In this document: in pieces, positions 9,374 through 35,383 of the stretch
How positions within the stretch are numbered: the first letter of the stretch is position 1
How the letters are laid out: every line of letters begins with the position of its first letter
DNA from: Escherichia coli
GTDB lineage: Bacteria > Pseudomonadota > Gammaproteobacteria > Enterobacterales > Enterobacteriaceae
Length of the DNA: 64,000 bases
Reading direction: 5' to 3' (one strand)
Assembly (NCBI RefSeq): GCF_009931435.1
Contig: NZ_CP043414.1
Notes under the pieces: model-generated
What the model saw: the letters and a program-made list of their open reading frames with translations, nothing else
The model's database searches: none
What the model was told of the DNA's origin: nothing
Made by a program: the position numbers and the translations under genes

Positions 9374-9449
9374 TGGTGGCCCCTGCTGGACTTGAACCAG
9401 CGACCAAGCGATTATGAGTCGCCTGCTCTAACCACTGAGCTAAGGGGCC
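9374..9449 (-). tRNA. ileX: tRNA-Ile2 (anticodon CAU, lysidine-modified class)
   Basis: Reverse complement reads GGCCCCTTAGCTCAGTGGTTAGAGCAGGCGACTCATAATCGCTTGGTCGCTGGTTCAAGTCCAGCAGGGGCCACCA; cloverleaf with CAT anticodon loop and CCA end. Confidence 0.9.
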
Positions 9450-30037: not shown

Positions 30038-31471
30038 ATGAAAGTAACGCTGCCAGAGTTTGAACGTGCAGGAGTGATGGTGGTTGGTGATGTGATGCTG
30101 GATCGTTACTGGTACGGTCCCACCAGCCGTATCTCGCCGGAAGCGCCGGTGCCCGTGGTTAAAGTGAATACCATCGAAGAACGTCCGGGCGGCGCGGCTA
30201 ACGTGGCGATGAATATCGCTTCTCTCGGTGCTAATGCACGCCTGGTCGGGTTGACGGGCATTGACGATGCGGCGCGCGCGCTGAGTAAATCTCTGGCCGA
30301 CGTCAACGTCAAATGCGACTTCGTTTCTGTACCGACGCATCCGACCATCACCAAATTACGGGTACTTTCCCGCAACCAACAGCTGATCCGTCTGGATTTT
30401 GAAGAAGGTTTCGAAGGGGTTGATCCGCAGCCGCTGCACGAGCGGATTAATCAGGCGCTGAGTTCGATTGGCGCGCTGGTGCTCTCTGACTACGCGAAAG
30501 GTGCGCTGGCAAGCGTGCAGCAGATGATCCAACTGGCGCGTAAAGCGGGCGTTCCGGTGCTGATTGATCCAAAAGGCACCGATTTTGAGCGCTACCGCGG
30601 CGCTACGCTGTTAACGCCGAATCTCTCGGAATTTGAAGCTGTTGTTGGTAAATGTAAAACAGAAGAAGAGATTGTTGAACGCGGCATGAAACTGATTGCC
30701 GACTACGAACTCTCGGCTCTGTTGGTGACCCGTTCCGAACAAGGGATGACCCTGCTGCAACCGGGTAAAGCGCCGCTGCATATGCCAACCCAGGCGCAGG
30801 AAGTGTATGACGTTACCGGTGCGGGCGACACGGTGATTGGCGTCCTGGCGGCAACGCTGGCAGCGGGTAATTCGCTGGAAGAAGCCTGCTTCTTTGCCAA
30901 TGCGGCAGCTGGTGTGGTGGTTGGCAAACTGGGAACATCCACGGTTTCACCGATCGAGCTGGAAAACGCAGTACGTGGACGTGCAGATACCGGCTTTGGT
31001 GTGATGACCGAAGAGGAGCTGAAGCTGGCGGTAGCGGCGGCGCGTAAACGCGGTGAAAAAGTGGTGATGACCAACGGCGTCTTCGACATTCTGCACGCCG
31101 GGCATGTCTCCTATCTGGCAAACGCCCGTAAACTGGGTGACCGCCTGATTGTCGCTGTGAACAGCGATGCCTCCACCAAACGGCTGAAAGGGGATTCCCG
31201 CCCCGTTAACCCTCTCGAACAGCGTATGATTGTGCTGGGGGCACTGGAAGCGGTCGACTGGGTGGTGTCGTTTGAAGAAGATACGCCGCAGCGCTTGATC
31301 GCCGGGATCTTGCCAGACCTGCTGGTGAAAGGCGGCGACTATAAACCAGAAGAGATTGCCGGGAGTAAAGAAGTCTGGGCCAACGGTGGCGAAGTGTTGG
31401 TGCTCAACTTTGAAGACGGTTGCTCAACGACCAACATCATCAAGAAGATCCAACAGGATAAAAAAGGCTAA
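30038..31471 (+). CDS. hldE: Bifunctional heptose 7-phosphate kinase / heptose 1-phosphate adenylyltransferase
   Basis: ORF track 477 aa [27 protein letters not shown]. Confidence 0.95.
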
Positions 31472-31564
31472 CCGGAAAGCGGTTCACAGATCTCGCTTCG
31501 AACCAGGCAGGCCTATTGACGCTGTTGTTTTTTCAACCTAAAGTAAAGGAACAAGGGTAAGGGA

Positions 31565-31700
31565 GGATTTCTCCCCCCTCTGAATTGGTTGTTAGTAAGT
31601 CGGGAAACTTAACAGTAACAACACAATCAGTATGATGACGAACTTCATCATAACCCTTTCCTTATACAAGGCCCCTTCCTCGGGAGGGGCTTTCCCGTTT
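31565..31700 (+). ncRNA. sib: Sib-type antisense sRNA overlapping ibs (antitoxin); ends approximate
   Basis: Inferred from ibs position; GC hairpin ccccttcc tc gggagggg plus ctttcccgttt at 31669..31700 as plus-strand terminator. Confidence 0.45.
31592..31651 (-). CDS. ibs: Ibs-family type I toxin, 19-aa hydrophobic peptide MMKFVIILIVLLLLSFPTY
   Basis: Read from minus strand: ATG ATG AAG TTC ... TAC TAA with aaggaaaggg SD; close resemblance to K-12 Ibs peptides (from memory). Confidence 0.7.
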   Translation of the reverse strand: MMKFVIILIVLLLLSFPTY

Positions 31701-31889
31701 CAGCCCCTTGCTGACTACCCGATTGTTGATGAGCGCCAGACCCCGCGCAATGCTTTCTCTTATGCAGTTTTCTCTTCCCCGAGTTGGCTCGCAAAACGCT
31801 GTAACAACCTGATCATTTGTACTTTTTAGCGGAACGCAGATATAAAAAATCCCCGGCTTTTTGGGCCAGGGATGTTCATAGTTGAAAAT

Positions 31890-33551
31890 TTATTCTATGT
31901 TTTCTGCGACGGGAGTTGTTGAGGTTAAGGGTGAAGTCAATGCCGCTAGCGAGCCGCCTGAAACACCGATTTCATTGAGTAAGGAGTCAATCAGCGGTGC
32001 CTGTGTGCGATAAGAAAGCGCGGCTGATAACGCTTGTTCCGCCAGATTTCCTCCACCAACGCTACCTGATATTGCATCCCCTGCGGTACCACCACGGTTC
32101 AGACCATCGACCTGAATAATCTTAATACCGTCGATAGACTTCATTGGTTCCACAGATTTCTCAATTACCGCAGGGAGCGCCTGCAACAATGCCAGTTTGA
32201 ATTTAAGGCTGGTTTGCTCGTCAGAAAGTACGTTGATAGCATCGTTCAGCGCACGTTGCGCTTCTGCTTCCGCCAGGCCTTTTTTACGCGTAGCTTCGGC
32301 TAACTCAACGATCGCCGCCGCCTGCATCTCTGCGGCTTCTTTTTCTGCTTTCGCCCGCACGGTCAGTTCAACCGCTTTGGTTTCTGCATCCTGCGCGGCA
32401 GCGATTAGGGCAACTTGTTTAGCACGATCGGCTTCTGCGGTCTGGCGAGTGGTTTCTACGTTTTGCTGGGCGCTTACCGCTTCTGCAAGTGCAAGGTTGG
32501 CACGCGCTTCCGCTTGTGACTGCTGTTCCGATTTGGCGGCAATAGCGATCGATTTCGTCTGGTTGGCGATTTCGGTGACCTGCTGCTGTTCGATCTCTTT
32601 AATGCGAACTTCACGTTCAGCTTCAACTTTTCTGGAACGGACGGCCTGTTCGCGGTCGATTTCCGTTTCCTGAATCTGTCGTTCAGCCAGAATTCGCGTC
32701 TGCTCTGCTTCCCGACGACGCTCGGCCTCAAAAGCCGCAATTTTCGCATTCTGCTCAGCGGTACGGGTTTTAACCTGCTGCTCCTGCTCAAGCGTCATAA
32801 ACGCTTCTTGCTGTTCAATCTCCAGCTTCCGCGATAGCGCATCACGGTTTTTCTCACGCACCGCAACTTCTACATCTTGTTCAACTTCGTTACGTTCGCG
32901 GCGACGGCGCTCCGTCTCCTGCGTCAGCTTGGTTAAACCTTCGGCGTCAAAGGCGTTGTTAGGATTGAAATGTTCTTTCGACGTCTGGTTAAAGTTGGTA
33001 AGTGAAACGCTTTCCAGTTCCAGGCCGTTTTTCGACAGATCTTCAGCAACGGTATTTTGTACGCCCTGCACGAAGTTCTCGCGGGTATCCTGTAACTCAT
33101 GCATGGTCATTTGTGCAGCTGTTGCACGGAGGGCATCGACAAATTTATCTTCAACCAACATACGTAAGTCTTCAGGCGACAGGGTGCGTTGCCCCAGCGT
33201 CTGGGCGGCGGTGGCAATACCTTCCACTGACGGTTTTACCCGCACAAAGAAAGCGACAACGACATCGACGCGCATACGATCTTTCGTAATCAGGCTATCA
33301 ATGGTTGAGCGGCTGACTTCCAGCTTCAGAGTATTCATATTGATGGGGATTATTTCATGAAAGATCGGCATCACGATTGCGCCACCGCTCATTACCACTT
33401 TTTGCCCACCTAAACCAGTACGAACAAAAGCTTGCTCTGCCGAAGCGCGACGATAGAGCCTGGCGAAAATAATTCCAATAATAAACAGAATGCATACGGC
33501 AATAATTGCGGTAAACATCCAGGAGGGCACAGAATTAACAATATCATCCAT
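31890..33551 (-). CDS. yqiK: SPFH/band-7 (flotillin-like) membrane protein
   Basis: ORF track 553 aa; N-terminal TM plus long coiled-coil. Confidence 0.85.
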   Translation of the reverse strand: MDDIVNSVPSWMFTAIIAVCILFIIGIIFARLYRRASAEQAFVRTGLGGQKVVMSGGAIVMPIFHEIIPINMNTLKLEVSRSTIDSLITKDRMRVDVVVAFFVRVKPSVEGIATAAQTLGQRTLSPEDLRMLVEDKFVDALRATAAQMTMHELQDTRENFVQGVQNTVAEDLSKNGLELESVSLTNFNQTSKEHFNPNNAFDAEGLTKLTQETERRRRERNEVEQDVEVAVREKNRDALSRKLEIEQQEAFMTLEQEQQVKTRTAEQNAKIAAFEAERRREAEQTRILAERQIQETEIDREQAVRSRKVEAEREVRIKEIEQQQVTEIANQTKSIAIAAKSEQQSQAEARANLALAEAVSAQQNVETTRQTAEADRAKQVALIAAAQDAETKAVELTVRAKAEKEAAEMQAAAIVELAEATRKKGLAEAEAQRALNDAINVLSDEQTSLKFKLALLQALPAVIEKSVEPMKSIDGIKIIQVDGLNRGGTAGDAISGSVGGGNLAEQALSAALSYRTQAPLIDSLLNEIGVSGGSLAALTSPLTSTTPVAENIE

Positions 33552-33577
33552 TATTAAATTTCCTTTTGATTAATAAA

Positions 33578-34207
33578 TTACAATATCTGGGGCCAGGGAT
33601 TGTTTTCCGCCAAATATCGCGTTGCAGAAAGTCGGCAAATAATTAACACTTTGTCTCCTTTAGTGAAAATTTTTCCTTCTTCAGGCTCTAGTAGTAAATA
33701 ATGTATTTGGCCAAATTGATCGGTGAGTTTTCCTTCGCAGGGATTACCTGAAGTGGCCTGATGACCGGTAATGAACGCCATGCTACCAATATATTCTTCT
33801 TCTGTAATAGCTGAACTATGGTCGCGTGGAATCCAGGGCGCAACTATTTTACCGGTATAATGCACCGCAATAATCGTAAACAGTAAACTGACAGGAGCCA
33901 CGAACAGGTTCGAGAGTGGTGATTGCCAAACCATGATGCAGGCATGCTGCAACAGGATGCCAATAAGACCAAAAAAACCAGCCAGTAAACAGAGAACGAC
34001 GAGAGCTGGCAATCTTCCGATATTGAGATAATGAAGTGCCTGGCTAATATGACCTGTGGTTATGGAATCATAATGGTCAAGATGTGCATCAAGAGCACCG
34101 GAGAGCATGTGACCGCAGATAAGCGCAAAAATTTCTAAAAGGCCGATCAACAGTACAAAGGAAATAGCGAAAAGATAAGGGGTGTTATAGTCGGCGAATA
34201 AAATCAT
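33578..34207 (-). CDS. yqiJ: NfeD-like inner-membrane protein, partner of YqiK
   Basis: ORF track 209 aa polytopic membrane protein upstream of yqiK. Confidence 0.8.
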
Positions 34208-35129: not shown

Positions 35130-35383
35130 CCGCTTATTCTCAGGGCGGGGCGAAATTCCCCACCGGCGGTAAATCAACTCAGTTGAAAGCCCGCGAGCGC
35201 TTTGGGTGCGAACTCAAAGGACAGCAGATCCGGTGTAATTCCGGGGCCGACGGTTAGAGTCCGGATGGGAGAGAGTAACGATTCTGTCGGGCATGGACCC
35301 GCTCACGTTATTTTGGCTATATGCCGCCACTCCTAAGACTGCCCTGATTCTGGTAACCATAATTTTAGTGAGGTTTTTTTACC
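35130..35383 (+). ncRNA. FMN riboswitch (RFN element) in ribB leader
   Basis: Conserved RFN segments gcttattctcagggcggggcgaaattccccaccggcggtaaa ... ccggggccgacggttagagtccggatgggagagagtaacg; downstream hairpin and T-run. Confidence 0.85.

Follow-up and report, generated by a model that had tools for sequence, protein, structure and literature searches.

A single-copy Ibs/Sib type I toxin-antitoxin module, probably the ibsE/sibE ortholog, between hldE and yqiK in Escherichia coli

Escherichia coli K-12 carries five Sib/Ibs pairs. Ibs toxins are highly hydrophobic peptides of 18-19 amino acids, and their mRNAs of 159-163 nt have an 18-nt 5' overhang past the antisense Sib RNA (PMC2943612). Sib pairs with ibs via the recognition domains TRD1 and TRD2, pairing spreads to the flanks, and the outcome is a block of translation and RNase III-dependent decay (PMC2943612; PMC4147584); shorter Sib species have also been ascribed to RNase III processing (PMC4147584). 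Repression, which has been shown for the K-12 pairs, is specific, with each Sib acting on its cognate ibs only, ibsA excepted (PMC2943612). Sib RNAs begin with A and are partly NAD-capped (PMC12956327). Toxicity upon overexpression was reported for the K-12 Ibs proteins and for Salmonella IbsA (PMC2943612; PMC9426594; bioRxiv 10.1101/2025.05.26.656083). Ibs peptides depolarise the inner membrane (PMC9426594), and in a 2025 preprint Salmonella IbsA was found to inhibit the Fo sector of ATP synthase (bioRxiv 10.1101/2025.05.26.656083). In Salmonella, a single Sib lies between yqiK and rfaE (PMC3384567).

The hldE–yqiK gap of K-12 spans 794 bp and holds two Rfam SIB matches and two annotated ibs genes, arranged with a tandem period of ~376 bp, with ibsE adjoining hldE and ibsD adjoining yqiK. 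Such a tandem of sibD and sibE had been given for K-12 in an initial annotation of the DNA studied here, and our comparison bore this out. We analysed a 64,000-nt stretch of E. coli DNA (NZ_CP043414.1, GCF_009931435.1; hereafter the window), in which hldE (30038..31471, plus strand) and yqiK (31890..33551, minus strand) are separated by 418 bp (31472..31889). Only one SIB_RNA match was found in the Rfam scan of the whole 64 kb. Hence the window has one unit and not the K-12-like tandem pair, in line with the earlier remark that there is room for only one copy.

We consider it highly probable that this gap holds an intact, single-copy Ibs/Sib type I toxin-antitoxin module that is the ortholog of K-12 ibsE/sibE and likely reached its one-unit state by a 376-bp deletion. 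The element itself is already known, as it falls into two curated families and its exact peptide is already present in RefSeq. Its sequence anatomy, family membership and copy number, together with its distribution in the population and among species, were determined directly in this work. For the transcript ends, the mechanism of repression and the toxicity we rely on published K-12 and Salmonella work, which the window module would be expected to follow.

Anatomy of the ibs gene and its antisense RNA

The ibs toxin gene, the ibsE ortholog, occupies 31592..31651 on the minus strand and comprises 19 codons and a stop, as seen from ORF translation and a Pfam search. Its product is MMKFVIILIVLLLLSFPTY. 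The gene is preceded by a ribosome-binding site, AAGGAAAGGG (31654..31663, minus strand), which was read directly from the sequence and is invariant in all homologous units; the AAGGA Shine-Dalgarno core (31663..31659) lies 7 nt 5' of the ATG. A hydrophobic minus-strand peptide of 19 residues with a Shine-Dalgarno sequence, resembling Ibs toxins, had been proposed in the initial annotation, and both the gene and the resemblance were confirmed. In the Pfam search, PF13956 (Ibs_toxin) was matched over profile positions 1-19 of 19 with 42.2 bits against a cutoff of 27 (E 7e-11); the query was the 25-aa extended ibs ORF, as the search minimum is 20 aa, and the match spans its residues 7-25. With 19 aa and its own Shine-Dalgarno sequence and ATG, the window gene has the features by which Ibs family members are recognised. 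An NCBIfam search of the peptide gave no HMM match at E up to 1. In RefSeq the identical peptide is named Ibs family toxin (WP_071821827.1) and occurs at the same position in three genomes; this name is therefore presumably based on evidence outside the NCBIfam models.

A candidate ibs promoter, placed by conservation and the published mRNA length, is found at 31722..31750 on the minus strand. It has a -35 element TTGCGC (31750..31745), a 17-nt spacer and a -10 element AACAAT (31727..31722). The -10 element, the TTG of the -35 element and the spacing are kept in 13 of 14 units from four genera, in surroundings that are only ~50% conserved. Its match to the consensus is weak (7/12), and a simple promoter scan called no minus-strand promoter at the locus, this one included. 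Because of the published length and overhang of ibs mRNAs (PMC2943612), the ibs transcription start may be placed at about 31711..31716.

On the plus strand, the complete RF00113 (SIB_RNA) model, positions 1-147 of 147, was aligned to 31516..31666 and scored 144.7 bits (gathering score 56, E 1e-31). Neither family match can be put down to chance. This model consists of the 35-bp Sib promoter and the first ~112 nt of the RNA; the terminator hairpin lies outside it, so the Rfam coordinates do not mark the ends of the transcript. A promoter scan called the Sib promoter at 31516..31550 on the plus strand, with -35 TTGACG (31516..31521), a 17-nt spacer and -10 TAAAGT (31539..31544); it is kept across 14 homologous units. 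For sibD, a 35-bp sigma-70 minimal promoter and the start context G-2 A-1 A+1 C+2 A+3 have been described (PMC12956327). In the window, GAACA is present at 31549..31553 and its +1 A is at 31551, exactly 35 bp from the -35 start, as mapped for sibD. The start context associated with NAD capping is retained. From the Rfam match, this start context and the fold, we predict a Sib antitoxin RNA, the sibE ortholog, at 31551..31693 on the plus strand, with its +1 A in GA[A]CA at 31551 and its 3' end between 31691 and 31697. The predicted length of ~143 nt agrees with the published ~140 nt (PMC2943612). The predicted RNA encloses, with perfect complementarity, the entire ibs ORF and its ribosome-binding site.

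Folding of the RNA from 31551 to 31700 (150 nt) gave -55.9 kcal/mol (z = -4.7) and a structure with a closing helix, three internal hairpins and an 11-bp terminal hairpin. The terminal hairpin, identified from the fold as the Sib terminator (31668..31693, plus strand), pairs 31668..31678 with 31683..31693 around a CUCG loop and is followed by CCCGUUU. It is kept in 17/17 homologs, and it was not called by a simple terminator scan because its U-tract is interrupted. Across 17 homologs from four genera, little or no change is seen in the Sib stems, and variation falls mostly in the TRD1-equivalent loop. Covariation in the stems is minimal, with one compensatory pair among the 17 homologs; support for the predicted structure thus comes from conservation and the curated Rfam model, not from new covariation.

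In silico, the window Sib has the sigma-70 promoter, the +1 A, the ~140-nt length and the terminal hairpin of a Sib RNA. The overlapping plus-strand Sib with a terminator-like hairpin suggested by the initial annotation was thereby recovered at the sequence level, and similarity to known Ibs and Sib elements was found with PF13956, with RF00113 and in the alignment to K-12 ibsE/sibE. The interval originally given, 31565..31700, covers most of the module and leaves out the Sib 5' end (31551), the Sib promoter and the ibs promoter. A promoter-like site, TTAACA-16-TATGAT (10/12 matches), is also present at 31609-31636 on the plus strand, inside the ibs ORF. An RNA from this site would start within Sib, and the site is probably due to chance.

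A terminator scan further called an intrinsic terminator of yqiK (31849..31873, minus strand), with a 9-bp stem and a T run. It forms the distal boundary of the unit present twice in K-12 and is identical at both K-12 unit ends. As delimited by alignments and Rfam copy counts, the window contains a single repeat unit (31513..31873). Units homologous to it occur as a tandem of two, with a period of 375-377 bp, in K-12, E. albertii, Escherichia sp. E1V33 and E. coli R32_14_1F; those of K-12 each extend from a Sib promoter as far as a yqiK-type terminator hairpin.

Copy identity and copy number in E. coli and relatives

In order to compare the window module with the two K-12 pairs, we aligned their peptides, RNAs and recognition domains. 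Like K-12 ibsE/sibE, the window module adjoins hldE and has the same architecture. The Sib/ibs segment is identical at 178/185 nt and the peptide at 17/19 residues, the window having F4 and I9 where K-12 IbsE has L4 and V9. Other differences from K-12 are the lack of a neighbouring ibsD/sibD, a 1-nt insertion and 2 substitutions just past the ibs stop (window GAATTGG, K-12 G-ATGAG), a Sib -10 element of TAAAGT instead of TAGAGT, and an ibs-upstream half that is only 85.5% identical. Two segments equivalent to the SibC recognition domains were located. The TRD1-equivalent loop and stem (31596..31619, plus strand; SibC +46..+68, PMC2943612) is antisense to the 3' half of the ibs ORF, and the TRD2-equivalent segment (31650..31666, plus strand; SibC +99..+115, PMC2943612) is antisense to the ibs start codon and Shine-Dalgarno sequence. 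Both are identical to those of K-12 SibE and of the E. albertii E copy. K-12 ibsD/sibD belongs to the same family and lies in the same intergenic region, but is yqiK-proximal and encodes MMKLVIILIVLLLVSFAAY; TRD1 of the D copies differs from that of the window at 5 positions and TRD2 differs at its 3' end, and this type is absent from the window. Judged by its recognition domains, the window copy is therefore the sibE/ibsE ortholog, and the D pair is the one that is missing. An even closer match was the hldE-proximal copy of E. albertii NBRC 107761, with an identical Ibs peptide, 184/185 identical nucleotides in the Sib/ibs segment and 97.2% identity over the whole unit. E. albertii differs in that it retains a second (D) unit, and its hldE is only 91.9% identical to that of the window.

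Among 5,426 complete E. coli genomes, the E-type TRD1 (38-nt query) was matched exactly in 4,905, about once per genome, and this 38-mer is annotated under ibsE in other genomes. The K-12 D-type TRD1 (39-nt query) had exact matches in 3,334 of these genomes, and a second D-type found in R32_14_1F and Escherichia sp. E1V33 (39-nt query) in 13. The locus has at least four TRD1 types. The second D-position allele, which has its own TRD1, encodes MMKFVIILIVLLLISFHAY (L059 2997-3056 in R32_14_1F; L035 4494-4643 in Escherichia sp. E1V33), and several of the 13 genomes that carry it are also among the best matches to the hldE flank of the window.

We then assessed copy number with a 991-nt query that included flanks of ~300 nt, for which a two-copy genome reaches ~68% coverage at most per alignment. 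The collinear one-copy arrangement was present in 1,325 of the 5,426 complete E. coli genomes (24%). In a sample of evenly spaced rows, all 15 rows at 98-100% coverage were single-piece, 14 of them spanning exactly 991 bp, and all of the 44 low-coverage rows stopped at the unit boundary, in keeping with the total. One copy was found in the window, U12A, SCPM-O-B-8794, RMDEC465, 2020CK-00188 and an O25b:H4-ST131 strain, and RefSeq annotates ibs in one-copy genomes, often as ibsE. The single copy is a common polymorphism of E. coli and is not specific to the window. As a consequence, the five pairs of K-12 are not the norm of the species: ~24% of complete genomes, including ST131 strains, are without sibD/ibsD, and such strains therefore have no equivalent of the phenotypes described for K-12 sibD, for example its heavy NAD capping in stationary phase.

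Relatives were surveyed by a conserved-motif scan of species-representative genomes, followed by tblastn and Rfam. One unit was found downstream of hldE in three Citrobacter genomes, in Kluyvera, in two Phytobacter genomes and in one further Enterobacteriaceae genome, and two units in E. albertii and Escherichia sp. E1V33. The loci of E. whittamii (L037) and Escherichia sp. MOD1-EC7003 (L048) end just past the first unit and were left outside the copy counts. In E. whittamii Sa2BVA5, the Sib terminator hairpin is interrupted in its loop by an IS-type terminal repeat, CTGTCTCTTATACACAAGT (L037 5961-5979), which splits the ibs ORF from its own promoter; the stored locus stops 57 bp further on. 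We take this repeat to be one base off the IS50 outside end. In Citrobacter sp. Cu233 (L010) and C. amalonaticus (L038), an FMN riboswitch follows the sib unit at a distance of only ~1 kb, and no yqiK was detected by tblastn in these two loci. It seems that yqiJK is absent there and that sib/ibs still stands beside hldE.

Origin of the one-copy state

The intergenic allele of the window is rare, as 100% identity was observed in one complete genome only, 2020CK-00188. The one-copy strain RMDEC465 is 98.8% identical over this region, and the goat strain R32_14_1F is 98.5% identical, only to the unit boundary. All three share the Ibs peptide of the window, and their hldE and glnE are 2 to 4% different from those of the window; hldE is only 96.4% identical to that of 2020CK-00188 despite the 100% intergenic identity. 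For the glnE-hldE flank, no complete E. coli genome exceeded 98.4% identity to the window. R32_14_1F and 2020CK-00188 also have the same YqiK protein as the window (WP_032185149.1), with yqiK of R32_14_1F identical at 1655/1662 nt. R32_14_1F differs in having two units, the extra one being the D unit that encodes the second D-position peptide.

This strain allowed the window unit to be compared with a two-unit relative. From 31513 to 31621, all informative sites of the window agree with the E unit of R32_14_1F; the right flank (31874..31889) is of the D type. Between 31668 and 31835 the two R32_14_1F units do not differ from each other. The direction of the copy-number change is read from such comparisons, and we favour a 376-bp deletion by homologous recombination between tandem units over an ancestral single copy, with fair though not high confidence. 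Recombination between the units would have removed the yqiK-proximal D pair (376 bp) and left the E pair, and on the simplest reading the crossover would lie somewhere within 31622..31873. A comparison based on K-12 sites alone had first given an E-left/D-right mosaic, which we rejected. Many sites matched neither copy, and most of the pattern reflected allelic divergence of the K-12 units; the mosaic had been overstated because the K-12 units are themselves divergent alleles, as seen once E. albertii, SCPM-O-B-8794 and R32_14_1F were added.

Alternatively, the single copy may be ancestral and simply retained, the two-copy strains having arisen by later duplication and the window having lost nothing. 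The single units of Citrobacter, Kluyvera, Phytobacter and another Enterobacteriaceae genome agree with this, as does the single Sib of Salmonella between yqiK and rfaE (PMC3384567). However, E. albertii and Escherichia sp. E1V33 both have two units, and the E-type and the D-type TRD1 are each identical between K-12 and E. albertii; the duplication is therefore older than the split of these species and predates E. coli. Moreover, R32_14_1F, the nearest relative of the window allele, shares its E unit and YqiK with the window and has two units, whose left halves diverged anciently. We regard an ancestral single copy as rather improbable. R32_14_1F could also be read the other way, as having gained its D unit by recombination.

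A broader reading of the locus, which we put forward only tentatively and think is rather unlikely, is that the sib/ibs array between hldE and yqiK may be a trans-species recombination hotspot that shuffles copy number (one or two) and recognition-domain alleles. It is suggested by the number of TRD1 types, by the 184/185-nt match to E. albertii despite 8% divergence in hldE, and by the D-less state of the window, which is part of a 2.5-kb tract shared with an E. coli that is divergent elsewhere. If this were true, alleles of chromosomal type I toxin-antitoxin systems would move between lineages by homologous recombination, with diversifying selection for cognate recognition, and the published view that these systems evolved only by vertical descent and lineage-specific duplication would have to be qualified. 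The main evolutionary interest of the module lies in its hypervariable recognition loop, its near-identity to the E. albertii module and the shared recombination tract.

Only in the tract in question, 31130-33700 (~2.5 kb: the 3' end of hldE, sib/ibs and yqiK), is the window nearly identical to 2020CK-00188. Divergence reaches 4 to 6% in the flanks of the tract, and 32493-32613 forms a small divergent patch; this is the pattern of a recombination mosaic. At the 3' end of yqiK (31890-31950), the last ~20 codons are of an allele unlike that of K-12 and U12A, with tblastn stopping at residue 533/553. This allele is common to 2020CK-00188, R32_14_1F, Escherichia sp. E1V33 and E. coli SCPM-O-B-8794.

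Integrity of the module and the overlapping 65-aa ORF

By analogy with the K-12 pairs, the window module would work as follows. The weak minus-strand promoter (~31750..31722) would give an ibs mRNA of ~160 nt and from it the 19-aa hydrophobic membrane peptide, and the sigma-70 promoter at 31516..31550 would give the ~143-nt Sib from A31551 on the opposite strand. Sib would first contact the mRNA with TRD1, against the ORF, and TRD2, against the start site, both of which are exposed. As pairing spread, ribosome binding would be blocked and the duplex exposed to RNase III, so that little or no toxin would be made.

Instead, the locus could be a decaying remnant that has lost expression or activity of its toxin, its antitoxin or both. 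The ibs promoter is indeed weak by consensus and was not called by the scan, and the peptide departs from K-12 IbsE at residues 4 and 9. In contrast, the ORF and its Shine-Dalgarno sequence are intact, as are the two promoters, the terminator and every Sib stem, and the Rfam model is matched from end to end. The same peptide is found in the E. albertii E copy and in three other E. coli genomes, and F4 and I9 both occur in other family members. Decay is thus a very unlikely explanation. It is still less likely that the single copy is an assembly artefact in which two ~376-bp units were merged; the right halves of the R32_14_1F units are identical over ~170 bp and short reads could mis-join such repeats, but the same collinear one-copy arrangement is seen in the 1,325 complete-level genomes, and the same allele in RMDEC465 (98.8% identical) and 2020CK-00188 (100% identical). 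An intact one-copy module remains our preferred reading.

A plus-strand ORF of 65 aa (31632..31829) has its start within Sib and continues past the Sib terminator. The initial annotation held it to be almost certainly non-coding, and we agree that it is not a gene. It had no Pfam or NCBIfam match, and its homologs range from 27 to 67 aa; the frame is shifted in the K-12 E and E. albertii D units, and a premature stop cuts it short in K-12 D, SCPM-O-B-8794 and E1V33 D. The conservation of its first ~26 residues is due solely to the overlap with Sib and ibs. That it is instead a real coding gene, with an incidental Sib-like signal, is barely credible: its 65 codons are open in the window, in U12A and in the E copies of E. 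albertii and E1V33, but it matches no family, lacks a Shine-Dalgarno sequence, reads past the Sib terminator, is broken in both K-12 units, E. albertii D, SCPM-O-B-8794 and E1V33 D, and is unrelated in other genera beyond residue ~26. Naming ibs, whose length is below what most gene callers accept, and Sib, which does not code for protein, keeps this spurious ORF out of the annotation.

Two other RNA elements were noted in the window. A tRNA gene (RF00005, 73.1 bits) is located at 9377-9449 on the minus strand. An FMN riboswitch (RF00050, 120.9 bits) lies at 35132-35280 on the plus strand, downstream of yqiJ. It is presumably the ribB leader, and the same relative position is kept in the Citrobacter, Kluyvera and Phytobacter loci.
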